NCBI GenBank assembly: GCA_964608935.1
Contig: CAZSQF010000001.1
Location: 1-53,638 of the forward strand
Source: an uncultured Actinomycetota bacterium
Lineage (GTDB): Bacteria > Actinomycetota > Nitriliruptoria > Nitriliruptorales > Nitriliruptoraceae
DNA length: 53,638 nucleotides
Direction: 5' to 3'
A program made the position numbers and the translations under genes. The notes under the pieces were generated by a model. That model did no database searches and was not told the DNA's origin. It worked only from the letters and a program-made list of their open reading frames with translations. Shown one piece after another: positions 19,875 to 46,058 of this stretch (positions within the stretch are counted from its first letter, which is position 1; each line of letters starts with the position of its first letter).

Positions 19875-20251
19875 GTCCCTCTCCAACGACGCGTAGCCCG
19901 GTGGACCGGGGCCATCCCAGTGGGCCGGTTCACGATCGGGGACGTAGCATGCACCACCGGGCCGCTAGTCGCACTGGACTGACGGAATGCTCGTGGTGGG
20001 CGATGCAAGTGATGGCCTGCCGTGCGTCGTTGTCCCGGCCGGAGCGACCATCGTAACTGTCAGCCGACCTGCGCCACCCTTGTGACCACCTACCTCGCGC
20101 CAGCAAAGCCCCCATTCTCGAGGGACTGAGTGCGACCGCCCGCTCGCCGCACACCGGCCGATCCCTCGTGCCGGTCGCAAGACAGGGGCGAGCGGCCCAA
20201 TTCAGCGCTAGCCTCGCAAACTGGGGAAAAGACAGCGGTGGGGGACGTTCG

Positions 20252-21037: not shown

Positions 21038-21090
21038 TCCGGAAGCTTCCAGCTCCCTGCCCCTGAGCGTTCGACGAGAGGAGGGCTACG

Positions 21091-22344: not shown

Positions 22345-22398
22345 GGGACCAGCGGACTCGCTCCCCACGTTGGGCCCAGTCGGACATCAGGAGGTGTT

Positions 22399-22950: not shown

Positions 22951-22968
22951 CCGCAGCAGGCGCCGAAG

Positions 22969-25415: not shown

Positions 25416-25457
25416 CGGTTGCCTGACCTCTGACGACCCCGGAGAACTGGCCCGATC

Positions 25458-26168: not shown

Positions 26169-26307
26169 GAAAAATCCCCACCGCTGCGTCGGAGACGGTC
26201 CGCCCCGGGAGCGCTGACCATAGACCCGACCGAGTCACCGTGTCCGTGGGTGGTCATCGAGTTCTGCGACTAGCCTGGCCGTTCCGACAACCCGGTGATC
26301 GTCCTTG

Positions 26308-30304: not shown

Positions 30305-31528
30305 ATGGTGCTGATCGACAACTATCGCACAGAGGGCGGGCAAGGGATCACGCGATTCCTGGCGACGGTCCGCTGGGAGGACCGGACACGCGAGCCCTTT
30401 GACGTCAGCTTCGCCGTCCAGGAGCAAGACACGGCTCGTGCCACCCTGAACCCCGACGCGTTTCGGGTTCCGGCGGCGATCGTCGCGCTGCATGACCACG
30501 AACAACGGATCAGTGGCGAAGGGGAACTTTGCCCCTTCCTCCGCGACGGCTTGGAGAACTCGTTCGCTTGGCTCCGGCGTTGGGCGGGTTCGTCGTCGCC
30601 GGGGCCGACGATCGACCTTCCGGTCCGCTGCTCACATCCAGGGGTGGAGACGGCCGCGAGCGGCATGTTGCTGTCCGGCGGCGTGGACTCGATGGCAGCG
30701 CTCGTAGCCAACCACACTGCGTATCCCCATGGACACGAGCGACGTTTCTCGGTCGCGTTCGTAGTCGTGGGCATTCAGCACTACCGGTGGGCGCACTTGG
30801 ACGAGGTCGAGGCTCAACTTGGCGCTGCTCGGAAACAACTGGCCCCCGTGGGGGACGCGACTGGTGTGAATATCGTTCCAGTCGCGACGAATCTGCGCGG
30901 TCTGAACCGGGACAGCTGGTTCTGGAAGTACGAGTTTCAGGGCGCCGCCTTGTCCGGCATCGCGCACCTGTTCGCGACCAGCCTCAGCGATGTGGCGATC
31001 GCCAGCACGTGGCAGATCAGCCACCTCGACCGGTGGGGGTCGCATCCGCTGCTCGATCCTGGTTACGGGACACACTCGCTGCGGATCTGGCATGAACTGG
31101 CGCACCTCGGACGGCTGGAGAAGACCGAGCTGATCGCTCAGCGGCCGGAGTTGCTCCAGCCGTTGAATGTCTGCAACGAGAGGGCGGGAGGCGACCTGAA
31201 CTGCGGCCACTGCGAGAAGTGCGTCCGCACGATGCTCGCGCTCGAATCGATGGGGCAGCTGGGCGAGAGCGAGGCCTTCGCGAGGGTCACGCTCCGGCGA
31301 GACGACCTGCGGGGTATCCGGATCGGCGACCGCGGCCTCGAGGGCGAGTACCTCGAGCTGATAGAACCGCTCCTGCGGGTGGGTCGTCCCGATCTGGCCT
31401 CAGCAATCAGTCGCATGGTTCGGTTCGGCCGACTTCGCAGAAGCCTGCCCGACCGGCTGACTCGGTCCTGGCGACGCGTCGCGCCAACGGCGGTCCGCCA
31501 ATGGCTCCGAACTCCGCGGTTGTCCTGA
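30305..31528 (+). CDS. PP-loop (adenine nucleotide alpha-hydrolase superfamily) ATPase of unknown specificity
   Basis: The SD ggggagggg precedes the ATG. PP-loop motif LLSGGVDSMAAL. QueC-like Cys cluster NCGHCEKCVRT. The roughly 125-aa N-terminal domain has no motif I recognise. Confidence 0.6.
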   Translation: MVLIDNYRTEGGQGITRFLATVRWEDRTREPFDVSFAVQEQDTARATLNPDAFRVPAAIVALHDHEQRISGEGELCPFLRDGLENSFAWLRRWAGSSSPGPTIDLPVRCSHPGVETAASGMLLSGGVDSMAALVANHTAYPHGHERRFSVAFVVVGIQHYRWAHLDEVEAQLGAARKQLAPVGDATGVNIVPVATNLRGLNRDSWFWKYEFQGAALSGIAHLFATSLSDVAIASTWQISHLDRWGSHPLLDPGYGTHSLRIWHELAHLGRLEKTELIAQRPELLQPLNVCNERAGGDLNCGHCEKCVRTMLALESMGQLGESEAFARVTLRRDDLRGIRIGDRGLEGEYLELIEPLLRVGRPDLASAISRMVRFGRLRRSLPDRLTRSWRRVAPTAVRQWLRTPRLS

Positions 31529-31591
31529 GCGTGCGAACCACGACTCGAGCGGCCGCCGGCTAACGTCCGTGCGAACGAAAGGCAGCGTTCA

Positions 31592-31831
31592 GTGGATCTC
31601 GACGACGTGATGTCCCTTCTCCAGCAGACGCTGCGACTGGACGTGCCCTTGGACGCGGACACGCCCTTGTTGTCATCGGGGCTCATCGACAGCCTGGGCG
31701 TGGTCGTAGTGGTCACAGAGCTCGAGGCCCGCTACGGCGTCAAGATCGACGAGGCCGACATCGGCGTCGAGCGCTTCGACACGCCAGCCCAGATCTTGGA
31801 CTACCTGTCGTCGCGAACACGTACGGGCTGA
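31592..31831 (+). CDS. Free-standing acyl/peptidyl carrier protein (DltC/ACP-like)
   Basis: 79 aa with a GTG start after gaaagg. Phosphopantetheine-site context LLSSGLIDSLGVVVVVTELE (the DSL motif). Confidence 0.7.
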   Translation: MDLDDVMSLLQQTLRLDVPLDADTPLLSSGLIDSLGVVVVVTELEARYGVKIDEADIGVERFDTPAQILDYLSSRTRTG

Positions 31832-31928
31832 GAACGCGTTCGCGATCGGCTGTACCATTCCTCAGGCCCTCGGGCGTGACAGATGTCGAGCTTCAAGGGG
31901 GCAGGTCAGACTACCTAGGAGACCCACG

Positions 31929-33767
31929 GTGGGCAGCATCCGGCAGGTCCAGTTCGTGCTGGGCAGACACCGCCGCAGGAAATGGATCCTGCTCATCGTC
32001 CTCGCACTGATGCTCAGCGGCCTCGAGGTCGCGGCCGCTGCCCTCGTGTTCCTCCTCATCGGGCAAGTCGCCGAGCCGACCGGCCCCGTGGAACTTCCCT
32101 TCGTCGGAGATCCCGCTCGACTTCTGCCGTGGTTCAGCGACACGCAGATCGTGTTCGTCCTGACCGCGGGAATAGGCACGTTCTTCATTGCGCGTGCTGC
32201 CTTTCTCGTGTTCCAGAAGTATGCGCAGTCGAGAGTGGTTAACAACGCGACAGCCGAGATCTCCGCAAGACTGGTCAAGGGGTATCTCAAGATGCCCTAT
32301 GCCCTTCATCTGCGACGCAACTCAGCGGAACTGGTCCGCAACGCCTTTTTCAACGTCCAGACGCTGACGAAGCTTCTGGAATCGGGTGTCAAGCTGATGG
32401 CCGAATCGCTCATCATCCTGGGGCTGCTCGCGGCGATGATCCTGCTTGCCCCAGTCGCGACGATCGTTGCAACGCTAGTGCTCGGGCCCCTGACGTTCCT
32501 CGTCCTCCGAATCGTCAAGGCCAGGACGAGGGCCTATGGAGAAGCGATTAAGGAGGCAGAGAAGGAAGGGCTGACCGTCGTCCAGGAAGGACTTGCCGGG
32601 ATCCGCGACCTACGGATCCTCGGAGCGGAGGAATTCTTTGCGAAAGCCTACCGGACGACGAGAACTAGCCAGGCAAGGAGCCGCATGAGATATGCGGCGG
32701 TAGGCGAAGCGCCCCGGGCACTCATCGAAACGCTCCTGGTCCTTCTCATCGCGGGCTTCTTCGCCTTCGTCACCGCGTCGCCGGGAATGACGACGGCAAC
32801 GCTTTCCATCCTGGGGCTTTTCGCGTACGTGGGTGTCAGGATGAAGCCTTCGATTCAGGCCGTCATCTCAGGGGTCAACAACATTCGTCACTACGCTCCG
32901 GCGCTGGACGACGTCGCCAGCGACCTGCTTGCGATCAAACATCAGTCACGTGAGGCCAGTCCAGGGCCGGCCGTGCCTCGCCTTGAGAAGGAGATCAAGC
33001 TCGAAGGCGTCGACTTTGCCTACGAAGGGGCCGACACGCCAGCCCTCGTGGACATCGACCTCACCATCCCCCGCGGGACCGCCCTAGGCATCGTTGGACC
33101 CACAGGCGGGGGCAAGAGCACGCTTGTCGACGTGATCAGCGGTCTCCTCCCCCCCTCTCGCGGGACGGTTTCGGTGGACGGCGTGGACATCCACGCGTCG
33201 GACATTCGGACCTGGTACGACCAGCTTGGAGTGGTCTCGCAGGCGGTGTTCATTCTGGACGCCACGGTCAGACAGAACGTTGCGCTGGGTGTTCCGACCC
33301 ACCAGGTCGACGAGGCTGCCCTTCTCGAGGCCGTGCACCTCGCCCAGCTAGAGCCCGTGGTCAGTGAGCTGCCGGAGGGCCTGGATACCCGTCTGGGCGA
33401 GCGAGGCGTGCGGCTATCCGGGGGCCAGCGGCAGCGTGTCGCGATCGCTCGCGCCCTCTACCGACGGTCGGACGTGTTGATCTTCGATGAAGGGACCGCC
33501 GCCCTCGACAACACAACCGAGGCGGAACTTGTGGCGGCCCTCGAGGGTCTGCGCGGAAGAAAGACACTAATCCTCGTCGCCCACCGCCTCTCGACGGTCC
33601 GCCACTGCGATCACGTCATCGTCATTGAAAGCGGCCGCATCGAGGACGCCGGGACCTTTGAGCAACTCGCGGGACGACATCCGATGTTCGCTGCATTGCG
33701 GACCGGATCGGTGTCAGCGCAGCCATCTGTGGAGCAGGCTTCCCAGCCTGGTCGCGTCGGTGGATAG
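31929..33767 (+). CDS. ABC exporter, fused permease-ATPase (MsbA/PglK type)
   Basis: Six-helix N-terminal TMD. Walker A GPTGGGKST, signature LSGGQRQR, Walker B VLIFDE. Confidence 0.9.
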   Translation: MGSIRQVQFVLGRHRRRKWILLIVLALMLSGLEVAAAALVFLLIGQVAEPTGPVELPFVGDPARLLPWFSDTQIVFVLTAGIGTFFIARAAFLVFQKYAQSRVVNNATAEISARLVKGYLKMPYALHLRRNSAELVRNAFFNVQTLTKLLESGVKLMAESLIILGLLAAMILLAPVATIVATLVLGPLTFLVLRIVKARTRAYGEAIKEAEKEGLTVVQEGLAGIRDLRILGAEEFFAKAYRTTRTSQARSRMRYAAVGEAPRALIETLLVLLIAGFFAFVTASPGMTTATLSILGLFAYVGVRMKPSIQAVISGVNNIRHYAPALDDVASDLLAIKHQSREASPGPAVPRLEKEIKLEGVDFAYEGADTPALVDIDLTIPRGTALGIVGPTGGGKSTLVDVISGLLPPSRGTVSVDGVDIHASDIRTWYDQLGVVSQAVFILDATVRQNVALGVPTHQVDEAALLEAVHLAQLEPVVSELPEGLDTRLGERGVRLSGGQRQRVAIARALYRRSDVLIFDEGTAALDNTTEAELVAALEGLRGRKTLILVAHRLSTVRHCDHVIVIESGRIEDAGTFEQLAGRHPMFAALRTGSVSAQPSVEQASQPGRVGG

Positions 33768-33877
33768 GTCCCTTAGACAGATTTCGAGCCCCGCCCCAGC
33801 GAACTGGGCTGGGTTACTAGGGAGAGGTGTGGGACCGCAAGTGTGGCGTGATTCGACAGCTAGCATGTGAGGCTGGC

Positions 33878-34813
33878 ATGAACGCTGACGGATCCGGTTC
33901 TAACCTCCGCAAACTCATTCGTGAGGACTTCGCCACCCACGGATCTCGCTTGAGGAGCCCGGGGTTTCAGTCGCTGATCGTCTACCGCTTCGGCAACTGG
34001 CGCAACACGCTCGCCCCCGGAATCGCGCGGAAACTCTTGCACCTCCCCTACGAGGCGCTGAGACGCTCGGTGCGGAATCGCCACCGGATCGAGATCCACC
34101 ACATGGCGGTGATCGGTCACCGAGTGAGCGTGTCCGATCATGGAGCGATCGTCGTGGGCAACGAGTCCACGATCGGTGACGACTGTGTCATCGCCGCCGA
34201 CGTCACGATGGCGAAGACCAAGGTCGGCGCTCCGGGCCGGCCAACAATCGGTCAGCGAGTCGTGATCGGCCCCGGTGCAGCGTTCGTGGGCGGAGTCCGA
34301 GTTGGTGACGATGCGATCATCGGGCCGAATGTGGTCGTGTTCGCTGACGTGCCGGCGCGTGCGGTCCTCATGGCGCCGCAGGCGCGGATGGAGCCTCGCG
34401 CAGAACCCGACGAGGCCGTGCGGACGCAACAGGTGTCTGCTGGCCTCGTACCCTTCAGGTCTCAGGATGTGCCGAGTCGGATCCGAGTCGGCGACGGTGT
34501 GCTCGCAGCGCGCTCGGTTCTGCCTAGGTTCGAGGGGCCAGTGGACGTCGGCGACGGGTGTGTACTGCACGAGCGCGTCACGGTCGGTTGGGACCCGCCA
34601 TACGACTCGCGGCCGGAGGGGAAGCCGACACGCCTCGGCCAACGAGTCGAGCTTTCGGCGGGCTCGGTCGTCCTCCGAGGGGTTTCGGTCGGCGACGACG
34701 CCTGGATAGGCCCGAATGTGGTCGTGGATCACGATGTTCCGGCGCAGGCGTCGATGACGTGCGAGCCAGCGCGGATCTTCGGCGGACTCCGCAGCTCACG
34801 CCAACCCGAATGA
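33878..34813 (+). CDS. Acetyltransferase with a WcaB/CysE-like N-region and two left-handed beta-helix segments
   Basis: LRKLIREDFATHGSRLRSPGFQSLIVYRFGNW is paralogous to the genes at 36155 and 42956. Two separate hexapeptide blocks are present. ATG at 33878 follows gagg. Confidence 0.75.
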   Translation: MNADGSGSNLRKLIREDFATHGSRLRSPGFQSLIVYRFGNWRNTLAPGIARKLLHLPYEALRRSVRNRHRIEIHHMAVIGHRVSVSDHGAIVVGNESTIGDDCVIAADVTMAKTKVGAPGRPTIGQRVVIGPGAAFVGGVRVGDDAIIGPNVVVFADVPARAVLMAPQARMEPRAEPDEAVRTQQVSAGLVPFRSQDVPSRIRVGDGVLAARSVLPRFEGPVDVGDGCVLHERVTVGWDPPYDSRPEGKPTRLGQRVELSAGSVVLRGVSVGDDAWIGPNVVVDHDVPAQASMTCEPARIFGGLRSSRQPE

Positions 34814-34846
34814 TTCTTGCTACGCCTCAAGCCCTGACAAGCCTGC

Positions 34847-34867
34847 AACAAGAGCATTGCTCTTGTT
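34847..34867 (+). terminator. Candidate intrinsic terminator hairpin
   Basis: Perfect 9-bp stem aacaagagc / gctcttgtt with a 3-nt loop, 34 nt after the stop at 34813. No T-tract follows. Confidence 0.3.
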
Positions 34868-34931
34868 AGACGCCTGACTTCGTCATGGCGAGACTAACTG
34901 TCATATCATTGGCTGGAGAAAGGGAATCAAA

Positions 34932-36068
34932 TTGATTGGTAAATGGTCGCAAAGAATTCAACTCCGTTGCTTTCAGGGGATGCGTTCCGAGGAGCTACCG
35001 CTTTACGCAATTGGAACTGACGCTTCACCCGGAAATGACTATGTAGGGTACCAGTTCTATAGTTGGCGTATCAAGCCCGCTCTGAACGAACCAAACGCCC
35101 GGATACTTACCGATAACAAGTGGATATTCCACCAGATCGCGCGAGCCTTCCACCTCCCTACACCATCAACGTTTGCACTCTTCGACCCTGAGTTCGGGCT
35201 CACCACTGACGGGGAGCCGTGCCAAACAGTCGAGCACGTACTGGGTGTCCTGCACCGTCACCGACCTGGGGGCATCGTTGTCAAGCCGGCCGGAGGAATC
35301 CGAGGCGATGACCTATGCGTCTTTGAGGCAGTCGACTACGACGTTGGTAAGGCCAGGCGACGCACAGGCGGCCTTGTTGATCTCGCTGCTGAGCTGCGCA
35401 AGCTGCCGGCAATACGTCGAAGGAGCTGTCCCGGCTACGTTGTCCAGGAGATGCTTGTTCAGCATCCGCTGATAGCGGAGCTGTATCCGCACACGATCAA
35501 CACGGTCCGCCTCGTCACCCACATGACCAAGTCTGGCGCAGTACAGACACCGTTCGCGGTACTAAGGTTGGGGCGGGCGGGGAGTCTCACCGATTCATGG
35601 GACAAGGGCGGTGTGGCGGTCGCTGTCGATCCGGAGACCGGACGGCTATCCAGTGGAATCATCAAGCCAAAGCATGGGGGCGGCCGTGTTGACGCGCATC
35701 CCGATACTGGCGTGAGCTTCATCGACCGCACGCTGCCGATGTGGAGTGACGTGCTTGCGATCTGCACGCGGGCCGCCAAAGTCCTTCCTGGGGTCCGCTC
35801 GATTGGCTGGGATATTGTGATTGGAACACAGGGTCCGGTGATCCTCGAAGCCAACGAAGAATGGTCCCTCATCATGGTTCAAGCGCATACCGACGGATGG
35901 CTATCACTGCCCGGTGTTCGAGAGGATCTCGAGAAATTCGGCATCCGCTGTCCACCGGGACGCCCATGGCGGCCGATCATCCTGCCACGCATGGCCGCGT
36001 ATCAGGCATCACTACTCGTACGGAGCGCCAAGCGGCATGCATCGGACTTCCTCCGGAATTGGAAGTGA
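34932..36068 (+). CDS. Sugar-transfer-associated ATP-grasp ligase (ATPgrasp_ST-like)
   Basis: VVKPAGGIRGDDL, VVQEMLVQHP, TVRLVT, WDKGGVAVAVDPETG, and the IGWDIVI...GPVILEANE layout. TTG start at 34932 follows ggagaaaggga. GC is markedly low. Confidence 0.65.
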   Translation: MIGKWSQRIQLRCFQGMRSEELPLYAIGTDASPGNDYVGYQFYSWRIKPALNEPNARILTDNKWIFHQIARAFHLPTPSTFALFDPEFGLTTDGEPCQTVEHVLGVLHRHRPGGIVVKPAGGIRGDDLCVFEAVDYDVGKARRRTGGLVDLAAELRKLPAIRRRSCPGYVVQEMLVQHPLIAELYPHTINTVRLVTHMTKSGAVQTPFAVLRLGRAGSLTDSWDKGGVAVAVDPETGRLSSGIIKPKHGGGRVDAHPDTGVSFIDRTLPMWSDVLAICTRAAKVLPGVRSIGWDIVIGTQGPVILEANEEWSLIMVQAHTDGWLSLPGVREDLEKFGIRCPPGRPWRPIILPRMAAYQASLLVRSAKRHASDFLRNWK

Positions 36069-36154
36069 TGATGAGAAGAAGCCAATCTTCGCTGTCGGCA
36101 TCGACGAACATGACCTCTCGATCGAGAACAGCCGAGGCAGTTCACGGAGGTGCC

Positions 36155-36784
36155 TCATTCCTCGCGTTCTTTCGTTCGATGCCGAGCGGGCATCACCGCT
36201 GAGCCTTCGGGTACGTCCCTCGAGATGACACAGTTCGGCCCGATCCGGGCTCCGTTCCCAACAATGACGTCGCCGACTATCGACACGTTGACGCCAAGGC
36301 GGACGTCTTTCCCGAGAACCGGGGCCGGTCCGGTTCGGACCCAGCGGGCACCGAGCTGAACGCCCTGGCGAATCCAGCAACCGTCCCCGATGACGACCCC
36401 GGCATGGACGGCGATACCGCTCTGGTGGATGATTCGAACGCGCCGACCAATGAGCGCGGTTTCGTGAAGCTCTATCCCGTACCGACGAGTCGCCCGCCTC
36501 CGGAGAGTGCGAGGCACGCAGAGAACGAGTCGACGGAGAACCCCCGGCGACACCCGACGGCCGAAGCGTCCAAGACGGTAGGCGAGCAGAGCCTGGAAGC
36601 CGGGGTAGCGCCATTCACCGAGGTTCGCTTCTCGGTCTTCCCGCACGAGTGTGAGTAACTCGCGAAGCGTAGGCTCAGGGGTTGCTGTCGGTGGGGCTGC
36701 GGAGGGACGGTCGTCCAATGCCGAGACCTTCTCCACGGGTTGTCCGTCTGCAGATGTCGGGGAACCTTCATTGCGACGAGCCAC
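36155..36784 (-). CDS. Serine-O-acetyltransferase-like LbH acetyltransferase (WcaB/CysE type)
   Basis: LRELLTLVREDREANLGEWRYPGFQALLAYRLGRF, followed by hexapeptide repeats (IGRRVRIIHQSGIAVHAGVVIGDGCWI...). Confidence 0.8.
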   Translation of the reverse strand: MARRNEGSPTSADGQPVEKVSALDDRPSAAPPTATPEPTLRELLTLVREDREANLGEWRYPGFQALLAYRLGRFGRRVSPGVLRRLVLCVPRTLRRRATRRYGIELHETALIGRRVRIIHQSGIAVHAGVVIGDGCWIRQGVQLGARWVRTGPAPVLGKDVRLGVNVSIVGDVIVGNGARIGPNCVISRDVPEGSAVMPARHRTKEREE

Positions 36785-36862
36785 GGAGTGACCGTTGACA
36801 TCGAACGACCACCGAGGTGACCGAGCCTGGAGACGGGACCGGTTCCTCGCAGGGCCGGCGCG

Positions 36863-38248: not shown

Positions 38249-38446
38249 TCCTAGGGAGGATCCCGCGCCCGCACCTCCCATCTCACGCATGATCGTAGGT
38301 ACACCTCGCTTGGAAACGAAACTGGTTCAGCGGCTTGCTTCTGAGCTGCAGGGGTGTTGTCGTGCCGACAATCACCGGCAGCTGGCGGGCGGGATGGAGC
38401 CTCTGCCGACGTCGGCGTGAGCTGCCTTACGTTACGCCGACCTCCG

Positions 38447-38488
38447 GATTGTGCGAAAATACCATCAGATTGTGCGGGTATACCATCG
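38447..38488. repeat. 21-bp imperfect tandem duplication spanning the stop codon of the HAD-like gene
   Basis: gattgtgcgaaaataccatca (38447-38467) and gattgtgcgggtataccatcg (38468-38488), with 17 of 21 positions identical. Confidence 0.85.
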
Positions 38489-40540
38489 GGCGAGCCTGCC
38501 TGTCACATGTCGAGCCGTTCCTGCTGCTCCGAGCACCTTCCGTGCCGGTGGCGAACTCACGAGCCGTGACCCGTCACGCCAGGTGAACCAATCGCCAGGG
38601 AGCGGCCGTCCCATGAGGCGTCGAGCGACGTCGCCCAGTGACCAGCTTTCAGCGAGTGTTCGCACTGCACCCGTACCAAGCGCCTCAAAGGGAAAACTTC
38701 CCCATGCGCGAGCTTCGTCAATGGTGGGTGTCAAGACGAATTGCCGCAGGTTCTCAGTCACCGTCGCTCGCAGACCGGCATGCAGGGCAACGATCTCGCG
38801 GTCGATCACGAGGTCGTCCGTGAAGCAGTCGATCGTCTCGCGCATCAACCTGAACCCCCGAGTTCCTACGAGACCGGAGGGCTGCGTTGCCAGGGTGGGC
38901 TCGACCCGATCTCCTTCACATCGATACCCGATCGTCGTGCCATGATCCGCCGTGCAGAAGACTTCGAGGAAGGGAACCAGTCCCGCGAAGCGCTCGATCC
39001 CGCGGCCGTGCACAGCATCGAAGAGAAAGACCTCAAGCGCCGCACAGCCGGCATCCGTCGCTGACGCAGGCCATGGTTCGGCGCGTTCACGATAAGCCAG
39101 GAAGCCGATGGGGGCCGACTCCTCGACCTGGGCTCGGAACTCGCTGAGGGCGACGAACTGGCTGGCCACGCCGCCGAGATCGACGATGCCGACTCGCCCG
39201 GATGCCAGGAAACCTTCCTGTGCCAGGTACGCCTGGACCTCACGCCGCGCGATCCTCGCGCGACCTCGAATGATGGTGGCGAGGTCATCACGCGTGAGCA
39301 ACTCCATCAGCCGGGTCAGCCCGGAGGTGGTCAGCTGTTCGCTCCAGCGCTCAGGGAAGAATCCGGCGGATTCCAATTCCGTGGCGACTGCCTCGGCGTC
39401 AAGGTTGAGCCGCGCGAGGATCGAGCGTATGGAGCCCTGCGCTCCGTGTGACAGCAACCAAGGAGCCGTCTGTTCGCTCAGTTCGCCAGCTGCCGCAAGA
39501 TTCAAGACTTGTCGGCTACCACAGAGGTACCTGAGATCACAGCCGACTCCGATCCTCTCCGCCAGAACCGTCGCGATCCGCAGCAACTGCTGCCCATCGC
39601 GTGCCAGGAAGTACAGGCGGTCGACCCCATGACGCGATGCCTGCTGGAGAACCCAGAGGACGTACGCCACCAGGAGTGGTCCCGCCACGCCAGCCGTCGT
39701 GTCCCTGACGGCTCGGGACAGCGGATCCGGCGCCGATACCGTGCATCGCGCGAGCCGCGATGCTCCCGCCAGGAGCGACGACAACCCTTCCGTCTCCCAA
39801 CGGCGCGCCTCCAGGTACTCCTCGAAGCGGTTCGGATTGCCGCCCGGGAGATGGCGCGTTGTGATGCCGAGCCGCTTCGCAGGGATGATGTCGACCGACA
39901 GGTCGTTGCCATGGTGCACGACTTCAGCGGCTCGAACATGCTCCAGACGGAGCACCTCCGCGAACAACCGGCCCGTGCTCTTCGCTGCGCCGTGGTGATT
40001 GGAGACGTAGACGTGGTCGCCTGGCCCGAGCACGCCGTGCCTCCTCAACTGCTCCTCGAGGAAAGTGCTCGGTAGGTACGTGTCAGAGACGAAGATGATT
40101 CGATGCCCCGCGGCCCGGGCGCTCTCGACGGCAGCTCGTCCACTCGGCAAGCAACGGAACAGTTCAGCTTCCAGCCGGAGTTCGGACTCGATCATCTGGT
40201 CTCGAACCGCTGAAGTCAATCCGAATGCAGACCCGAACTCGTCGTAGATCTCCTTCAACGTAATATGAGAGTCACGCCCCCCGGCATTCCGAAAGGCGCG
40301 ACGATCGGCCGCCAGCCGATGCCGTGCGAAGGCCTCCGGAGTGCTACGGCCCAGCCCCCTGACCTGGAGCCATCTTCCCAGTAGCAGAAAGACAGCGTGC
40401 GGCGAAGCGACGGAACGGGTGAGAACGGTGTCGAAAACATCGAACGAAGCCACGCTAAGGGGCTCCTTCGTCCTCCGACGACCCACCCAACGAGGCGTGG
40501 GAACCGCTACGAGGTCCGCCCACGCCGGTAGCTTCGCCAT
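38465..40540 (-). CDS. Large HAD-superfamily-like hydrolase (COG5610-type N-domain plus a roughly 450-aa domain of unknown function)
   Basis: ATG at 40538-40540. SFDVFDTVLTR, VSDTYLP, SNHHGAAKSTG and HHGNDLSVD resemble the HAD-like motif series seen in capsule-locus hydrolases. Confidence 0.65.
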   Translation of the reverse strand: MAKLPAWADLVAVPTPRWVGRRRTKEPLSVASFDVFDTVLTRSVASPHAVFLLLGRWLQVRGLGRSTPEAFARHRLAADRRAFRNAGGRDSHITLKEIYDEFGSAFGLTSAVRDQMIESELRLEAELFRCLPSGRAAVESARAAGHRIIFVSDTYLPSTFLEEQLRRHGVLGPGDHVYVSNHHGAAKSTGRLFAEVLRLEHVRAAEVVHHGNDLSVDIIPAKRLGITTRHLPGGNPNRFEEYLEARRWETEGLSSLLAGASRLARCTVSAPDPLSRAVRDTTAGVAGPLLVAYVLWVLQQASRHGVDRLYFLARDGQQLLRIATVLAERIGVGCDLRYLCGSRQVLNLAAAGELSEQTAPWLLSHGAQGSIRSILARLNLDAEAVATELESAGFFPERWSEQLTTSGLTRLMELLTRDDLATIIRGRARIARREVQAYLAQEGFLASGRVGIVDLGGVASQFVALSEFRAQVEESAPIGFLAYRERAEPWPASATDAGCAALEVFLFDAVHGRGIERFAGLVPFLEVFCTADHGTTIGYRCEGDRVEPTLATQPSGLVGTRGFRLMRETIDCFTDDLVIDREIVALHAGLRATVTENLRQFVLTPTIDEARAWGSFPFEALGTGAVRTLAESWSLGDVARRLMGRPLPGDWFTWRDGSRLVSSPPARKVLGAAGTARHVTGRLARWYTRTI

Positions 40541-40952
40541 GACACGGCGCGGACTCCTCACCTCCCCGGCTCCCGGCGGACGAGTACACGCGTTGCCAAC
40601 AAGCGTTCGCCTCCGATCGGACGGAGCAACACGACCAGCGAGCGGCGCCACCAGGAACCCTTCCCCAGTACGAGAAGGCGGCTTCGGCGCGCCCAGCGAC
40701 GTGCACGATGACCCTGTGTCGGGATGGCGATCCGACGAGCGCCGTGTCGAGGCCACACGTGGTAGGCCCCGACCGGCAGCGGTCGTATCTCTCGGCGACG
40801 TCGAGACCATGGTCGCTCCCCATCGACGATCAACACGACCTGCTCGCCGGAATCCTGAGGCGTATGAAGAGAGCGCAAAGATTCCTCCCAGTGGGTCGTC
40901 GAGGGATCAGGTTCGCCGTGGCCGAATGGCCCCGACCAGCCCTCACGCGGTG

Positions 40953-41957
40953 CTACCACGATGGAACCGCCCATGCAGCCCGCTCACGCAGCTGGTCATC
41001 GGACATCAGTGCCGACGCCACGGCCACATACCAGTCAGGCGGGGGGAACGAGGACACGACGGCTCGCTTCACCTGTTCGATCGAGGTCATCAATAGCGCC
41101 CATCCGAGAGGGGCCTCGAACCGCCAGCCCCGCCCGATCGTGTCAGCCAGCGTGCGACCGCACCACGTGTCGACACCCAGAACGCGTGACAAGGCGCCGG
41201 CCGCACCCAACTGCTGACGGTCGCCGACGGATTTAGCCAGCGTCAGCATCAGATAGCACTGGTCGAACCAGGGAGGAAACCGCGAAGACGCTGTCGCCCA
41301 GTCAACGACAGCAATCCCCCGCCGAGTCTGTAGGAGGTTGCCGACGGCGACGTCGCCATGCTGCCAGGTCGGCGGGGTCATGATCCCGGACGCGGCAGCG
41401 GCACTTGTGAATGAAGCGAGCTTGTCGCGATCAGGTGCCTCGAACACCTCATCAGTCGGCAGTCTCATGAACTCGGACAAGCCCGTCCTCGTGGTGTGGG
41501 CATCCCTGGCTGCGCCATAGCCGGCAAGGATGCGACTCCACTCCCCGACACTGCTGACGTAGCGCCTCAGTCGCCGGACGGCTCTTGGCGAACGCGAAGC
41601 CGCCGGGCTGGCAAGTCGCAGCCGACGACCCGGGATAACCGTCATCGCGAGCACCGTCAGCTTCGGCAGGCTCAGAACGCTCAAGGGCTCGGGCACGAGG
41701 TGACGGTGATGTGGCGGCAACAGGTCGCGCACGTCGCCGAGGTTTCGGAACTCACGAACGAGTTCAGCGCCGGCACTTGTGCCTGATCCCAATTTCAGAA
41801 CGGCTCGCGGGCGTGCCGCTCGGTCAGACTGGCGGAATATGAGCATCTGCCCAGGTCGACGGCTCCAGTTCACCACAATGTCGTGACGAGAGGGCGTCTC
41901 ACCCGGGAACCAGATCGACCATCGTTGGTCGCTCCATCGGATCGCCTGGTCAAGCAT
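40953..41957 (-). CDS. APH/choline-kinase-family phosphotransferase
   Basis: Brenner motif HGDVAVGN, followed by IAVVDWATA. Confidence 0.7.
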   Translation of the reverse strand: MLDQAIRWSDQRWSIWFPGETPSRHDIVVNWSRRPGQMLIFRQSDRAARPRAVLKLGSGTSAGAELVREFRNLGDVRDLLPPHHRHLVPEPLSVLSLPKLTVLAMTVIPGRRLRLASPAASRSPRAVRRLRRYVSSVGEWSRILAGYGAARDAHTTRTGLSEFMRLPTDEVFEAPDRDKLASFTSAAAASGIMTPPTWQHGDVAVGNLLQTRRGIAVVDWATASSRFPPWFDQCYLMLTLAKSVGDRQQLGAAGALSRVLGVDTWCGRTLADTIGRGWRFEAPLGWALLMTSIEQVKRAVVSSFPPPDWYVAVASALMSDDQLRERAAWAVPSW

Positions 41958-41994
41958 GCGGTCGGCTCCCGATCAGCCACGAGGCTAGGCTCGG

Positions 41995-42834
41995 TCAGCC
42001 GTCACGACGACGGATGACGCGCGCAGGATTTCCCACCGCGATGACATTGGACGGGATGTCCGTTGTGACGACGGCCCCTGCACCGATCACGGCTCCCTCC
42101 CCTATCCGCACGCCCGAAAGCACGATCGCGCCATACCCCAGCCACACACCGTCACCGATCAGGACAGGGCCCTTCGTCGTCAGAGATTGATTCCGGACAA
42201 GGACATTAGCGGCGGTTCCATGGTCGAAGGAGTAGATGGCACAGCTCGGGGCGATCTGCACGTCCTCCCCGATCTGGATCGGTGCAACATGCGAGGACAG
42301 GTGGCAGCGCGGATGCACGTGGGTCCGCGCACCGATCGTGACCGCTCCCCCTGGTCCGGTCTCGATGCAGACGTCTGCGTTCAGGTAGACATGGTCCCTG
42401 ATCCGAACAGTCCCACCTTCACGGTGCTGGTACACGACGACACGATCGCCGAGGAACACGTGGGGACCGAGCTCGAGCGACGCGTGGTCGAGTCGGGCGC
42501 TCGGCGCGACGTAACCGTGCCGTGTGAGCTCAGCGAGCCGGTGTCGCCCGAAGTATGGCGGCGCCGTCAAGGTCGCCAGGGTGGTCGCAAGGCGGCGGAG
42601 AAACGGGACTCGTGCCAAGCGCATCCAGCTTTCGGACCAGATCAGCCGCATCGACTTGCGAACGCCGTGGCTGCGCAAGCCGGAGACGACGCGACGACGG
42701 CCGGATCTGCCGAGCCTCAAGAGGTGATTCAACGATGACCTCCCTTCATCCCCGCCCATCCGCCAGCCGGTCGGTCCATCTGACACCGATGCTCCCAGTG
42801 GCCCCTGCGGTCTCGCGCACGCGGGAGCCCTCAC
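41995..42834 (-). CDS. LbH acetyltransferase (WcaF / maltose O-acetyltransferase-like)
   Basis: Hexapeptide repeats, with C-terminal VLIGDGVWLGYGAIVLSGVRIGEGAVIGAGAVVTTDIPSNVIAVGNPARVIRRR. The true start may be the ATG ending at 42759 or the one ending at 42651. Confidence 0.8.
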   Translation of the reverse strand: MRAPACARPQGPLGASVSDGPTGWRMGGDEGRSSLNHLLRLGRSGRRRVVSGLRSHGVRKSMRLIWSESWMRLARVPFLRRLATTLATLTAPPYFGRHRLAELTRHGYVAPSARLDHASLELGPHVFLGDRVVVYQHREGGTVRIRDHVYLNADVCIETGPGGAVTIGARTHVHPRCHLSSHVAPIQIGEDVQIAPSCAIYSFDHGTAANVLVRNQSLTTKGPVLIGDGVWLGYGAIVLSGVRIGEGAVIGAGAVVTTDIPSNVIAVGNPARVIRRRDG

Positions 42835-42955
42835 CCCGACTGCCAGTCACATCTTCATCTTGACCGATGGTGCCGGGCCGGGACATCCCACCACCAGCCG
42901 CGGCACCTTAGCTTGCTAGCGTGCCGGACGCGCCCGGGCCCGCGCGAGCGTCCAG

Positions 42956-43170
42956 GTGGTGGTCCCGTCGAAGCGCCAGAGGGCGCGGCCCTTACCAACT
43001 GCACCACGCCAACCCAATGCACAGGAACTCGTCCGTCTGGTTCGAGAGGACTGGCAGGCCAACCTGCGTGACTGGCGTAATCCGGGATTTCAGGCACTCC
43101 GCTACCGCTTGGTGCAGTTTCGACACCGGCGGGCATCGCGTCTAGGCAACGCTATCGTCATGGCGCTTGC
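42956..43170 (+). pseudogene. 5' fragment of a third WcaB/CysE-like acetyltransferase, truncated by the IS256 remnant
   Basis: QELVRLVREDWQANLRDWRNPGFQALRYRLVQF is paralogous to the N-termini of the genes at 33878 and 36155. No hexapeptide domain follows. The rest of ORF 42956..44833 is antisense to the transposase. Confidence 0.55.
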
Positions 43171-43192
43171 GGGGCGGCGGGGTGGCGTGAAC

Positions 43193-44332
43193 TCATGCCG
43201 CGGTCTTCTTCTTGGTGATCGTGCTGGTGTCGCTGGACGGTGGCGGGTCGATGCCGAGCTCCACGCGCAGCAGGTGCAGCTGGTGGCGCTCCACCTCGGA
43301 AACCGACACTCGCGACCAGCGGTCGGCGCAGCGGATGAGGGTGGCGAACACCAGCTTCATCGCGGAGCGTTCGTCGGTGAACCGGGGGATGATCTTGGTG
43401 CGGCGTTCCTCGACGAAGGAGCGTTCGGCGAGGTTGGTGGTGCGCACGTTGATGCGATGCCGGTGCGGGATGCGGTGGATGGCCAGCAGCGCGTCGAGGT
43501 CGTCGGCCAGGCAGTCCATCGCCGCGGGGAAGGTCCGCGCGAAGCGGTTGATGACCTGATCGGCGGTCGCGCGTGCCTGGTCGAGGGTGGCGGCGTCCCG
43601 GATGGTGCGCACATGGGCCATCACCTCGGGCGCGGCGTCGTCAGGCAGCTTGGCGCGGATGTTGGAAAGCCGGTGGAACCAGCAGCGGATCCTGATCGAG
43701 TCGGGCCACACGCTGCCGATGGCGTTGGTCAGTCCGGGTGCCCCGTCCGCGGTCACACTGGTCGGGGCCCGCAAGCCCCGGGCGACCATGTGGCGGAAGA
43801 ACTCGGTCCGCGCCTGCTCGGATCCCTTGTTGCCCACCGCCAGGTGCAGCAGATGCTTGAACCCGCCCGAGTCGATGCCCCAGGCCACCAGCACCGCTTC
43901 CTTCGCACCGTGCCGGCGCAGCGACTCGAACACCGCATCGACGAACAGATACTCGACCTCGATATCGGACAGATCCCGCGCGCAAAACGCCTGGAACTGC
44001 TCCCAGATCCGATCGGTGATCTCGCTCACCGCCGACTTGGAGATCTCTCCGCTCTCGCGGACGCGGCGGACGATCCCGGTTACCCTCAGGCCGTCCCATT
44101 GGCCGCGACGAAGGTCGGATGCGGACGCAGGGCGGCGCGCCACGGTCGAGCCGGACCGGAGCACGTGCACGAGTGGAACAGACTGCTCCTGCAAGAGCTG
44201 CACATCCAGAGGGAATCGAGGCAACGAGCTGTTGCCATCGTAGTGTTCGTAGCAAGCGTCCACTCGGGAGGGAACTACTGGAGTCTGGTCGGGCTGAGGC
44301 CACCATGGCGCCTTCATCGACGAGGTTGCCAT
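43193..44332 (-). mobile_element. IS256-family (mutator-type) transposase gene, probably a 5'-truncated or degenerate IS remnant
   Basis: SKSAVSEITDRIWEQFQAFCARDLSDIEVEYLFVDAVF, VLVAWGI, ADGAPGL, RCWFHRLSN and RTTNLAERSFVEERR are IS256-type DDE landmarks. The N-terminus is about 40-60 aa shorter than I expect. I could not find terminal inverted repeats. Confidence 0.8.
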
Positions 44333-44399
44333 GGAGGGTTGACACCTTCGAGGCGACGGAACGGGTCTTCGTTCCGGTCGAGATGGAGGGGATTGATTG

Positions 44400-46058
44400 A
44401 TGCCGGGTGCCTTCTACACGGCTCTCGAAACGGCTGCCTCGACCCGCGCCGACGATCCGGCGTTCACCTTCTTCGACACCGATCACCAGACGACGACCTA
44501 CACGTTCGGGGGGCTGTTGTCGGCCGCCCAGGACGTCGCTCAGCGGCTCCGCGAGGAAGGTCTCGACGATCGGAGCCGCCCCCTCGGCCTGCTCCTCAGC
44601 TCCCAAGAGGAGCAGATCGTGCACTATCTCGGAGCCCTTTGTGCCGGTGCGGTGCCGTCAATCCTGACGCCACCGAACCGCAAGCTCAACCGGGAGTACT
44701 ACGCGGTGACGATGATGGAGGTCTTGAGACGCTCCCGGTTCCGTGCGCTCGTGACCGACCTGGACGACGTCCCATTCTCGGTTCCTGCCTATGGGCCGGG
44801 GAGCATCACGCCGACACCCGCCCCGGAACCTGATGGCCCAGTGCCTGAAAACGGCGAACCGTTGGACGCGTCGTTCCTCCAGTTCTCGTCGGGGACGACC
44901 GGGATCAAACGCGGCGTACTGGTCCGGGACGAGGCCGTGCTCGCGCAGCTGCATGCCTACGCGGCTGCGCTCGGGCTGACCGACGAGGATCGGATCGTGT
45001 CCTGGCTGCCCCTCTACCACGATATGGGCTTCATCGCCTGCCTCAACATGCCGCTGCTCTTCGGCGTGCACACGATCATGATCGATCCCATCACTTGGGT
45101 CACGCGGCCATCGCTGCTGCTTCGTGCCGCTTCGCGTTTCGGCGGGACCCTGTCGTGGAACCCCAACTTCGCCTATGCCTTCATGGCGCAACGGATCCGC
45201 GATAGCGAACTCGACAGTGTGGACCTTTCCATGCTCCGGGGCCTGGTCAACTGCTCGGAGCCGGTGACCCACGCAAGCCAAGAGCAGTTTCGCGCGCGGT
45301 TCGCGCCTCACGGGCTCCGCGACGACGTGTTCCTGGGCTGCTACGCCATGGCGGAGACGACCTTCGCCCTGACCCACGGCGCGGGGTCGGACCCGGACGC
45401 TCTGGACGAGATCGGTCCCGTCGCCAGTGCCCGCGCCACGGACCGCGACCCATACGTTTCGGTTGGAAGACCGATCGATGGCGTCGAACTCGAGGTGATG
45501 AAGCAGGAGGGCGAGCCCTGCCGTGACCGTGAGATCGGGGAGTTGTGGGTGCGTTCCCCGTTCAACTTCACCGGCTACTACGGAGAGCCGGAGGCGACGG
45601 CCGAGGTGTTCGCCGGTGACTGGTACCGGACCGGTGACCTGGGGTATCGGATCGGGGACAGGTTCTTCATCACCGGACGCTGCAAGGACGTGCTCATAGT
45701 CGGCGGGGTGAACGTGTTCCCCAACGACCTCGAAGACGTGGTCGCACGGGTCGACGCGGTGATCCCGGGGCGCGTGGCTGCGTTCGCCGAGTTTGACACC
45801 CGGATGCAGACCGAGCAGATCACGATCCTGGCCGAATCGGAGCTGAAGGACGAGGCAGCGCACGAGGCGGTTTTGCGCATCCGGCAGTGGGTGCAGGCGT
45901 CATTCGAGCTGGCCTCCTTCGAGGTCCGCCTGGTGCCCCCGGGATGGCTCGTCAAGAGCTCGTCCGGCAAGATCGCTCGATCGGCCAACCGGGACAAGTG
46001 GGACCGTGAGCGGCCGCACGCCGTGGCAGCCAGCAGGAGCACGCCGCAATCCGGATGA
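44400..46058 (+). CDS. ANL-superfamily adenylating enzyme (fatty-acyl-AMP / acyl-carrier ligase-like)
   Basis: The SD ggagggg lies 8 nt before the ATG. FLQFSSGTTGIKRGV, YHDMGF, YRTGDLGY and SSGKIAR are AMP-binding core motifs. Confidence 0.85.
   Translation: MPGAFYTALETAASTRADDPAFTFFDTDHQTTTYTFGGLLSAAQDVAQRLREEGLDDRSRPLGLLLSSQEEQIVHYLGALCAGAVPSILTPPNRKLNREYYAVTMMEVLRRSRFRALVTDLDDVPFSVPAYGPGSITPTPAPEPDGPVPENGEPLDASFLQFSSGTTGIKRGVLVRDEAVLAQLHAYAAALGLTDEDRIVSWLPLYHDMGFIACLNMPLLFGVHTIMIDPITWVTRPSLLLRAASRFGGTLSWNPNFAYAFMAQRIRDSELDSVDLSMLRGLVNCSEPVTHASQEQFRARFAPHGLRDDVFLGCYAMAETTFALTHGAGSDPDALDEIGPVASARATDRDPYVSVGRPIDGVELEVMKQEGEPCRDREIGELWVRSPFNFTGYYGEPEATAEVFAGDWYRTGDLGYRIGDRFFITGRCKDVLIVGGVNVFPNDLEDVVARVDAVIPGRVAAFAEFDTRMQTEQITILAESELKDEAAHEAVLRIRQWVQASFELASFEVRLVPPGWLVKSSSGKIARSANRDKWDRERPHAVAASRSTPQSG

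Follow-up and report, generated by a model that had tools for sequence, protein, structure and literature searches.

An apparently mosaic surface-glycan island in an uncultured Nitriliruptoraceae bacterium, with putative separable tailoring modules and an unannotated family of PP-loop proteins

The DNA studied here (hereafter the window: 53,638 nucleotides of contig CAZSQF010000001.1, assembly GCA_964608935.1, from an uncultured actinomycetotal bacterium of the family Nitriliruptoraceae) carries, between positions 30,305 and 46,058, an island with a PP-loop ATP pyrophosphatase (ATP-PPase), a free-standing acyl carrier protein (ACP), an ATPgrasp_ST ligase, an ANL adenylating enzyme and several left-handed beta-helix (LbH) transferases (Table 1). 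A preliminary description, made from the sequence alone, joined the three activating enzymes and the carrier into a single route that would decorate a uronic-acid-containing glycan with aminoacyl or acyl groups. Our results lean instead, at slightly better than even odds (probability roughly 0.55), toward a variable, mosaic part of a surface-glycan locus, in which assembly and export genes are combined with at least three separable tailoring modules. Gene calls were guided by the GC content of third codon positions (GC3), and all substantial open reading frames (ORFs) were scanned with Pfam and NCBIfam; by this annotation the whole window is a surface-glycan locus. All components listed earlier were found, including both UDP-sugar dehydrogenases and four LbH genes (three intact and one stub), while an IS256/Mutator remnant between the LbH stub and the ANL gene had been overlooked. 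The observation was confirmed and its interpretation partly supported; two of the three chemistries have characterised analogues.

The distribution of the genes among relatives carries the argument for separable modules (L-numbers denote relatives' loci fetched for comparison and P-numbers homologous proteins). Related loci repeatedly bring together orthologs of the PP-loop, ACP, LbH, ANL, ABC exporter, GMC and APH genes, whose clustering is therefore beyond chance. ANL, ACP and LbH are indeed co-conserved (ACP in seven of eight loci, with three LbH fusions), but the expected set of PP-loop, ATP-grasp and ANL genes is not. ANL orthologs with 54-73% identity form more than 120 clusters among the matches listed, whereas close homologs of the PP-loop protein number about 25; L170-L174 have the ANL trio and no PP-loop gene, and conversely L166, L169 and some 150 distant loci have the PP-loop gene with neither ANL nor ACP; across phyla the PP-loop gene tracks a GMC oxidoreductase; and the ATPgrasp_ST gene is rarely present at all. 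A single route through all three activating enzymes is hence not what the comparison supports.

The first module would be a carrier-dependent acylation system. Neighbourhoods were compared for eight distinct ANL-ortholog loci (L001, L167, L168 and L170-L174), and each of the eight is a glycan cluster, so that the ANL enzyme and its carrier belong, as had been supposed, to surface-glycan synthesis. In seven of them the ACP gene adjoins the ANL gene or is fused to a neighbouring LbH gene, which is not so in the window, and a CysE-like LbH gene lies at most two genes from ANL in six. An LbH-ACP fusion stands directly upstream of ANL in L001, L168 and L173, the order is LbH-ACP-ANL in L167 and ANL-LbH-ACP-LbH in L172, and ACP precedes ANL in L170 and L174 (with a stop/start overlap in L174). 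The fusion of an LbH protein with a carrier domain, next to an adenylating enzyme, is a strong argument for the carrier as the source of the LbH donor.

The individual proteins fit this arrangement. The highest-scoring NCBIfam models for the ANL enzyme are fatty acyl-AMP ligases (FAALs; 286 bits, below the 600-bit cut-off), as are its top PDB matches (3KXW, 7R7E-G, 3PBK, FadD23 and FadD32), and the FAAL-specific insertion that follows motif A5 and blocks CoA thioesterification is represented by about 32 residues between 'AETT' and 'VSVGRP', in an alignment with several gaps. The window ACP is 46-61% identical to the ACPs of ANL loci, the 61% being to that of L170, which is encoded directly upstream of that locus's ANL; its best NCBIfam matches are DltC models at 36 and 28 bits, under cut-offs of 68 and 52. 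LbH328 has a 44% identical ortholog between ANL and ACP in L172 and shares 33-41% identity with the LbH part of LbH-ACP fusions, and the L172 ortholog of LbH209 (43-47% identity) immediately follows the ACP, LbH209 also sharing 37-40% identity with the LbH proteins of L001, L167, L168 and L173; in L172 the two orthologs flank the ACP, one on each side. From these gene neighbours, LbH328 is a candidate acyl-ACP-dependent transferase and LbH209 a candidate second partner of the ACP. The FAAL-like enzyme would adenylate a carboxylic acid and load it as a thioester on the 79-residue ACP, and LbH328 and LbH209 would transfer the acyl group to a sugar from the neighbouring nucleotide-sugar block, at one of its hydroxyl or amino groups. 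Conserved linkage and gene fusions give such a module good support; the linkage is observed, and from it we infer chemistry, donor and acceptor. It should be noticed that LbH328 is partly duplicated within itself, its residues 241-317 matching residues 116-188 at 45% identity, and that its L172 ortholog, of 398 residues, is a complete tandem duplication.

Known systems offer partial parallels. LpxA and LpxD are LbH acyltransferases that depend on acyl-ACP, and in Vibrio cholerae O1 the wbe tetronate genes encode an ACP, an AMP-ligase and a hexapeptide transferase that N-acylate perosamine. The first module resembles these in that an adenylating enzyme, a small carrier and an LbH protein are co-encoded in a glycan locus and the LbH donor would come from the carrier; unlike the wbe system, its LbH proteins are CysE/WcaB-like and often fused to ACP, its ANL enzyme is FAAL-like, and tetronate-type reductase and dehydrogenase genes are missing. 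Tetronate acylation in V. cholerae O1 and its need for wbeL were confirmed in a study that does not confirm the ACP logic (PMC3441752). Our literature search turned up no specific report of a characterised ANL-ACP-LbH module in glycan synthesis. The Dlt analogy drawn earlier extends to an ANL-superfamily enzyme and a carrier of about 80 residues serving a wall glycopolymer, and fails beyond that: Dlt uses the DltA ligase, the MBOAT protein DltB and DltD, whereas the ANL enzyme here is FAAL-like, not DltA-like, and transfer would be performed by LbH enzymes predicted to be cytoplasmic. In Pfam scans of the window's substantial ORFs, DltB/DltD-like genes were missing, as were condensation and thioesterase domains, in agreement with the preliminary description, and there were no ketosynthase domains either. 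A siderophore, lipid or polyketide synthase pathway for ANL and ACP was discarded, given these missing domains and the eight glycan contexts out of eight.

In the window itself, the ANL gene has lost its usual neighbour. The transposase gene is 5'-truncated, being without roughly the first 120 profile positions, and no terminal inverted repeats of the IS256 element were found, which makes it a remnant and not a full insertion sequence (IS). The stub on its other side is 40% identical to residues 32-118 of LbH209 (E 6e-11), its translation carries the family signature REDWQANLRDWRNPGFQAL, and it occupies the position directly upstream of ANL that an LbH(-ACP) gene holds in relatives. Stub and remnant together thus show an ancestral LbH(-ACP)-ANL unit disrupted in the window, where the IS256 element has destroyed the LbH(-ACP) gene. 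The ANL enzyme must consequently work in trans with the free ACP encoded 12.5 kb away, or not at all.

Base composition gives the region its mosaic appearance. The flanks of the window have a GC content of 0.70-0.75 and the stretch from about 31 to 47 kb one of 0.61-0.66. GC3 is 0.83-0.91 in the nucleotide-sugar, ACP, ANL and transposase genes and 0.63-0.76 in the block from the ABC exporter through LbH279 (31929-42834), the ATP-grasp gene being lowest at 0.63. The lower GC3 of this block compared with the ACP, ANL and sugar-nucleotide genes indicates a mosaic, and the island seems to combine DNA of two or more origins, with a rearrangement about the IS. Close PP-loop loci have a GC content of 0.58-0.64, versus 0.69-0.70 in the ANL loci L170-L173, which have no PP-loop gene. 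Neither tRNA genes nor IS terminal repeats bounding the island were found in the window. PADLOC models matched none of eight island proteins, and a defence island with QueC-like proteins, as in the QatC/Cap9 systems, was dismissed on this result and on a context made up entirely of glycan genes.

The PP-loop protein would be the core of the second module. Among 28 homologs, G125, G126 and D128 of its SGGVDS motif are invariant and S124 is kept in at least 90%, and the C-terminal motif C290-x9-C300-x2-C303-x2-C306 is likewise invariant; its spacing may resemble that of the zinc site of QueC. The protein had no Pfam or NCBIfam match at E <= 0.01, none in PADLOC, and none among PDB sequences, whether searched as a single sequence or as a 28-sequence profile. 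The AlphaFold model (pLDDT 90, pTM 0.88) places SGGVDS between a strand (E118-122) and a helix (H127-139), and Foldseek matched it to the ATP-PPase domain of GMP synthetase (probability 0.96-0.99, E 3e-3); other matches were AsnS, NcsA, TilS and NadE, with TM scores low (about 0.2), so that none of them is close to the protein. At the level of the predicted model, this confirms an ATP-PPase fold of the AANH-like superfamily, to which an N-terminal beta-rich domain of about 105 residues is added. An exhaustive HMMER search found 3,385 family representatives at 50% identity (E <= 1e-30), and the window's own clade holds 10 copies, that of the window included. Only distant relatives (at most 38% identity) were met in a scan of species-representative genomes, and only three close ones, all on contigs of at most 2 kb, in a scan of JGI metagenomes; the contexts of close relatives come from exact-protein look-ups. 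Partners within the window's clade are the ABC exporter, GMC and ACP/LbH/ANL genes, plus an ATPgrasp_ST gene in L166.

Several contexts of the wider family speak for amide formation. A RimK-type ATP-grasp ligase gene lies immediately upstream of the PP-loop gene in 48 distant loci, often with a GNAT-like gene. N-acetylglutaminylglutamine amide (NAGGN) is made by Ngg (GNAT plus ATP-grasp) with the amidotransferase AsnO, and the mirrored RimK/GNAT-PP-loop arrangement is therefore counted in favour of amidation; by this analogy the RimK-linked loci look like a pathway for a small, NAGGN-like peptide amide. Rare fusion proteins (P0415, P0424 and P0400), with a polysaccharide pyruvyltransferase, a sulfotransferase or a FemAB-like GNAT domain attached to the PP-loop domain, tie the family to glycan decoration, and AsnB-type amidotransferases are encoded nearby in two (L171 and L172) of the four ANL loci without a PP-loop gene that were examined. 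From the conserved motif and four cysteines, the want of a glutaminase domain, the RimK partners, the AsnB genes of PP-loop-less loci and the two UDP-sugar dehydrogenase genes of the window, we infer a putative ammonia-dependent amidation of a carboxylate, which in the glycan case would be a uronate. The earlier proposal that ATP-grasp and PP-loop enzymes form amide bonds on uronate carboxylates is a reasonable one.

Some further features of these loci may be mentioned. The RimK-linked loci (L003 and L006-L085; e.g., L083 71-988, L067 7627-8940 and L042 7770-10988) are mostly from Desulfobacterota and often encode a weakly GNAT-like protein of about 440 residues and a TLC-transporter/HEAT/cNMP-binding protein of about 1070 residues. 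Free pyruvyltransferase genes neighbour the PP-loop gene in L166 and L001. Tandem arrays of PP-loop genes occur, with seven copies in L038 (a metagenome-assembled genome of Planctomycetaceae), five in L138 (with ANL and ACP) and three in L007, and also in L103, which hints at a number of different substrates or at a modification carried out repeatedly.

No partner of the family is conserved more widely than a GMC oxidoreductase, which is encoded in four of five close PP-loop loci and in none of the four ANL loci without a PP-loop gene. Eleven distant loci from at least six phyla (Chloroflexota, Nitrospirota, Verrucomicrobiota, Desulfobacterota, Syntrophorhabdus and others) share a co-linear arrangement of one to three tandem PP-loop copies, the GMC gene, a gap of about 1.5 kb and an LbH279-like gene, usually with DRL_cat, RmlC-like and NTP-transferase genes upstream. 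GMC follows the last PP-loop copy within about 2.4 kb, mostly immediately, in ten of the eleven, and precedes it in L091. Orthologs of LbH279 (42-50% identity) lie about 1.5-2 kb downstream of GMC in L007, L009, L017, L022, L028, L049, L058 and L091, and by these neighbourhoods LbH279 is a member of the cross-phylum PP-loop/GMC module. The N-termini of the GMC proteins were checked and hold no signal peptide, which rules out an exported enzyme. In the second module, the PP-loop protein would act with this cytoplasmic GMC enzyme and the WbbJ-like acetyltransferase, and a carboxylate, either a uronate from the UDP-sugar dehydrogenase or the product of GMC oxidation of a primary alcohol, would be adenylated and amidated with ammonia. 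Two observations concern L017 (11295-14586), an anaerobe locus: GMC is followed by genes for a 4Fe-4S dicluster protein and for a membrane subunit of the NrfD-like type, which occupy the gap and by gene content imply that GMC there would be a membrane- or quinone-coupled dehydrogenase in a polysaccharide cluster, and a PGA_cap (CapA-like) gene lies between two PP-loop copies.

Enzymes with known functions help to place the PP-loop protein. QueC converts a carboxylate to an amide and then to a nitrile. WbpS and WbqG are AsnB-type, PP-loop-type uronamide synthases (PMC7468200), and NASATs are acetamidino synthases, i.e., PP-loop proteins of about 380 residues with SGGxDS near residue 122 and a zinc tetracysteine Cys44/47/79/82 (CxxC...CxxC), which are defined by TIGR03573 together with an N-terminal CxxC...[GN]xCxxC ahead of the PP-loop (PMC10607449). 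The window protein has in common with these enzymes SGGxDS, the ATP-PPase fold, a tetracysteine motif and the glycan context, and it differs from them by the want of a sequence match, the N-terminal beta-rich domain, the missing glutaminase and the GMC partner. Pfam found no GATase or Asn_synthase domain in it, and an AsnB/WbpS-type uronamide amidotransferase was rejected because neither a class II glutaminase nor an Asn_synthase domain is present; QueC identity by sequence was rejected as well, with no Pfam QueC, NCBIfam or PDB match. What is truly new in the island is the PP-loop family together with its pairing with GMC oxidoreductases. A tentative and rather doubtful proposal goes further: the family would be a new ATP-dependent class of glycan-tailoring enzymes that form amides (or QueC-like nitriles) together with GMC and, in the window's clade, also with ANL-ACP-LbH, so that the wall polymer would bear either an amide-containing acyl group built on the carrier or a uronamide formed at the level of the polymer, by a route with no characterised equivalent.

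The third module would consist of the ATPgrasp_ST ligase, whose match to PF14397 (167.9 bits against a cut-off of 31.4) covers residues 47-319 and profile positions 6-264 of 278. It is encoded 3.4 kb downstream of the PP-loop gene in the same co-directional run, and only three fetched loci have such a gene beside a PP-loop gene, namely L166 (a 53% identical ortholog) and L092 and L123 (30-31% identical relatives). The closest parallel is the HS:2 capsule of Campylobacter jejuni, in which the C-terminal TupA-like ATP-grasp domain of Cj1438 amidates the C6 carboxylate of glucuronate with serinol phosphate or ethanolamine phosphate and the HAD protein Cj1435 removes the phosphate (PMC11800379). 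Both ATP-grasp enzymes sit within a glycan cluster with UDP-sugar dehydrogenases, the window enzyme too would be expected to amidate a uronic acid at its C6 carboxylate, and the HS:2 locus likewise uses ribofuranosyl transfer from phosphoribosyl pyrophosphate (PRPP). The window enzyme is free-standing, whereas the TupA-like domain of Cj1438 is fused to a family 2 glycosyltransferase (GT2), and the HAD domain of the window is part of a ribofuranosyltransferase, whereas Cj1435 is a phosphoamide phosphatase. TupA-like membership by sequence was examined and set aside, ATPgrasp_ST being the sole family reported at E <= 0.01. By analogy with Cj1438C/TupA, the enzyme would be an amidoligase joining an amine to a sugar carboxylate. 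Since amidation by Cj1438C, with Cj1435, is characterised, the earlier statement that the route has no characterised equivalent was too strong for the ATP-grasp step, and WbpS/WbqG are known in addition.

The presumed HAD-like hydrolase of the island has nothing to do with amide chemistry; over its full length its fold is that of a CrpP-CriT ribofuranosyltransferase. The ORF had been read as a 781-residue HAD hydrolase, and its homolog family gives a gene model of 662 residues (databases label this family only 'HAD family hydrolase / FMN phosphatase YigB'; its homolog P0294 is fused to GT2). The structural model (pLDDT 91) matches in Foldseek the Bcs3 multienzyme of Haemophilus influenzae (8A0M/8A0C; E 1e-25, TMq 0.63-0.68, 668-689 columns) and the polysaccharide ribofuranosyltransferase 7SHG from T. 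composti (E 3e-21). In Bcs3, PRPP is the donor from which CriT transfers ribofuranose 5-phosphate (Ribf-5-P), the 5-phosphate is taken off by the HAD-like CrpP, and of its DxD motif CrpP retains the first Asp alone, D386 (PMC10299916). The window enzyme shows the same full-length order of a HAD and then a PRPP-transferase-like domain and also keeps only this first Asp, D5 of FDVFDT in HAD motif I, which is invariant in 30 homologs; it differs by an identity of only about 18% and by having no fused TagF-like CroT domain. As modelled, it is a bifunctional enzyme that would add Ribf-5-P to the glycan and then strip the 5-phosphate, and ribofuranose is therefore predicted in the polymer. A Cj1435-type role is excluded for the HAD domain, which belongs to the CriT-type transferase. 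Together with the GT2 and family 4 glycosyltransferase (GT4) proteins, the PglK/MsbA-like ABC exporter and the polytopic membrane protein, all with activities predicted from domain or fold, it would make up the assembly and export part of the locus.

Several points weigh against reading the island as separable modules with the activities proposed. The insertion of the ANL enzyme falls short of the 43 or so residues of the solved FAALs 3KXW and 7R7G, so that its specificity for ACP over CoA is argued from gene linkage only; in the window this enzyme is without an adjoining partner and perhaps without a promoter, and the first module may consequently be inactive here. The QueC-like reading of the cysteines has no match to Pfam QueC or NCBIfam behind it and Foldseek TM scores of about 0.2, and our literature search for ATPgrasp_ST/PF14397 found no paper on a characterised member. 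Lastly, the PP-loop gene adjoins ACP/ANL in the window, in L001, L167 and L168, and in the distant L138 and L141, so that its substrate could be carrier-bound and not a sugar. The PP-loop protein might then amidate, for instance, a dicarboxylic acyl-ACP before an LbH enzyme transfers the amide-bearing acyl group, as OxyD, an AsnB-type amidotransferase, makes the malonamyl starter unit in oxytetracycline synthesis. We consider this unlikely: the adjacency holds in four of the six members of the window's clade with known context, and L138 and L141 carry two to five PP-loop paralogs with ANL and ACP, but the partner conserved across the family is GMC and not ACP/ANL, most members have no carrier protein nearby, and the ANL enzyme resembles those that activate fatty acids, not dicarboxylates. 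A single Dlt-like route, in which the PP-loop, ATP-grasp and ANL enzymes and the carrier would together aminoacylate or acylate a uronic-acid polymer, appears very unlikely. All four genes lie within 16 kb, PP-loop and ACP are co-directional neighbours with a 63-nt gap, L001 and L168 have PP-loop, ACP/LbH and ANL in an unbroken row, from which L167 departs little, and even the best NCBIfam match of the ACP is DltC, though below cut-off; against this stand the FAAL-like character of the ANL enzyme, the missing DltB/DltD or MBOAT proteins, the rarity of ATPgrasp_ST and the loci set out above where either the ANL trio or the PP-loop gene occurs without the other.

Other readings concern one module each. 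If the PP-loop protein were NASAT-like, as WbpG/PseA/WbuX are, it would convert an N-acetyl group set by an LbH279-type enzyme into an acetamidino group, which the co-linearity of PP-loop, GMC and LbH279-like genes across phyla and the NASAT-like size and motif position (PMC10607449) would suit; yet there is no TIGR03573 match, 8WEX is outside the top 50 Foldseek matches, no aminotransferase is conserved with the module, and the protein has no N-terminal CxxC pairs, its C-x9-C-x2-C-x2-C motif being C-terminal where the NASAT tetracysteine is N-terminal, and we regard this identity as quite improbable. It seems just as hard to credit that ANL-ACP-LbH builds a fatty-acyl lipid anchor or primer for ABC-dependent export and does not decorate the glycan at all: the ANL enzyme is FAAL-like, an MsbA/PglK-like ABC gene adjoins ACP/ANL in the window, L168 and L170, and LpxA/LpxD are LbH enzymes that use acyl-ACP, but the LbH proteins here are of the CysE/WcaB-like, short-acyl type and not LpxA/LpxD-like, the FAAL insertion is shortened, and the module lies beside nucleotide-sugar and not lipid genes. 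The carrier module of this strain could also be a decaying relic, with an ANL enzyme orphaned by the IS and no ANL-dependent substituent. The LbH stub and 5'-truncated transposase gene directly upstream of ANL would agree with this, as would the fact that among nine ANL loci the window alone has neither ACP nor an intact LbH gene adjoining ANL; we nevertheless hold it improbable, since the ANL ORF is undamaged over its full length and has a GC3 of 0.84, and the free ACP and two intact LbH orthologs are still there.

Table 1. Features of the window (positions on the forward strand of the stretch) and the evidence for their assignment.
Feature	Position	Strand	Evidence or remark
DUF222 match, partial gene	532-1326	+	profile positions 102-306 only
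Second UDP-sugar dehydrogenase of the window	8179-9477		Pfam
Carbamoyltransferase-like ORF, 224 aa	15285-15959	-	first ~144 positions of N-terminal domain matched
CEMIP-type beta-helix protein, 919 aa	15927-18686	+	
NTP-transferase	20168-21037	+	Pfam; sugar-nucleotide block part 1
DRL_cat/SAF oxidoreductase (DXR-like family)	21091-22344	+	Pfam
RmlC-like 3,5-epimerase	22399-22950	+	Pfam
UDP-glucose/GDP-mannose-type dehydrogenase (UGDH)	22969-24297	-	Pfam; sugar-nucleotide block part 2
NAD-dependent epimerase/dehydratase	24294-25415	-	Pfam
IspD-like cytidylyltransferase	25458-26168	-	Pfam
GMC-family FAD oxidoreductase, cytoplasmic	26305-28002	+	Pfam GMC_oxred_C 2e-25
GT2 glycosyltransferase, first gene of co-directional run	29201-30214	+	Pfam Glycos_transf_2
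PP-loop ATP pyrophosphatase	30305-31528	+	SGGVDS at residues 123-128
Acyl carrier protein, free-standing, 79 aa	31592-31831	+	PP-binding E 8e-10; phosphopantetheine Ser in LIDSLGV
ABC exporter, half-size-fused (transmembrane and nucleotide-binding domains), MsbA/HepA/PglK-like	31929-33767	+	Pfam, NCBIfam
LbH328, 328 aa, CysE/EpsC-like LbH and second partial LbH segment	33827-34813	+	Pfam, NCBIfam
ATPgrasp_ST ligase	34932-36068	+	Pfam PF14397 E 3.5e-49
LbH209, 209 aa, CysE/WcaB-like	36155-36784	-	Pfam, NCBIfam
GT4 glycosyltransferase	36863-38248	+	Pfam
CrpP-CriT-type enzyme, 662 aa: N-terminal HAD phosphatase and PRPP-dependent ribofuranosyltransferase	38465-40453	-	homologs, Foldseek
APH-family kinase-like protein	40953-41957	-	Pfam APH 1.3e-9
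LbH279, WbbJ/Mac-like LbH acetyltransferase	41995-42834	-	Pfam, NCBIfam
Decayed N-terminal stub of CysE-like LbH gene	42956-43192	+	tblastn
IS256/Mutator-family transposase remnant	43193-44332	-	Pfam Transposase_mut 4e-43, profile positions 120-378 of 379
FAAL-like ANL adenylating enzyme	44397-46058	+	NCBIfam and PDB best matches all FAALs
Polytopic membrane protein, 470 aa	46373-47785	+	at least 6 hydrophobic segments

The ANL module of relatives adjoins a nucleotide-sugar block of NTP-transferase, DRL_cat oxidoreductase, RmlC-like epimerase, UGDH, epimerase and IspD-like genes, and the window's block (20168-26168) has the same order, with 65-81% identity to L171. The genes of its first part (20168-22950) stand in the same order beside ANL/LbH in L171 (67-81% identity) and are also found in L170, L172, L167 and L169 and beside PP-loop/GMC in the cross-phylum loci, and the second part (22969-26168) is syntenic with L171 and L169 (42-73% identity). 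The set of DRL_cat/SAF oxidoreductase, RmlC-like epimerase and NTP-transferase is recurrent in glycan loci of several phyla (seen in the window and in L022, L032, L047, L049, L058, L167 and L169-L172). The co-directional run comprises GT2, PP-loop, ACP, ABC, LbH328 and ATP-grasp genes, with gaps of 59-118 nt; a GT2 ortholog (65% identity) lies upstream of the PP-loop gene in L001, ABC exporter orthologs (42-59%) occur in L166-L170, and GT4 orthologs (46-47%) in L001 and L170. From its sequence, the ABC protein is probably a flippase or exporter for a lipid-linked glycan. APH-like genes are recurrent in L001, L167, L169 and L170. The 470-residue membrane protein has no Pfam match and a 33% identical homolog in L168, and is possibly a polymerase- or ligase-like glycan-processing protein.

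Elsewhere in the window, several GT4 and GT2 genes were identified together with genes for a PglC-like initiating transferase, a PglD-like acetyltransferase, a polysaccharide deacetylase and a BY-kinase-like ATPase. The carbamoyltransferase-like ORF, which is probably a truncated gene, abuts the CEMIP-type gene in the lowest-GC part of the window (GC 0.60-0.61, GC3 0.68); homologs of the CEMIP beta-helix protein recur in L168, L169 and L170. The DUF222 partial gene is of the HNH-endonuclease-associated type common in Actinobacteria and gives one of the window's few hints to taxonomy, beside its GC content and a homolog named Actinobacteria.

Altogether, most parts of the island are ordinary, and the PP-loop family is the one worth studying. 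Actinobacterial wall glycopolymers bear many acyl, aminoacyl, pyruvyl and amide substituents, the biosynthetic genes of which are largely unknown. In this context, the acylation of glycans from a carrier could be the task of the ANL-ACP-LbH module, a small and widely distributed set of genes in which LbH and ACP are often fused, and the re-annotated ribofuranosyltransferase extends a recently discovered enzyme type to loci of the high-GC Gram-positive type. The PP-loop family is large, phylogenetically broad and unannotated, and its pairings with GMC oxidoreductases and with RimK-type ligases provide two testable hypotheses for what may be an amidating class.

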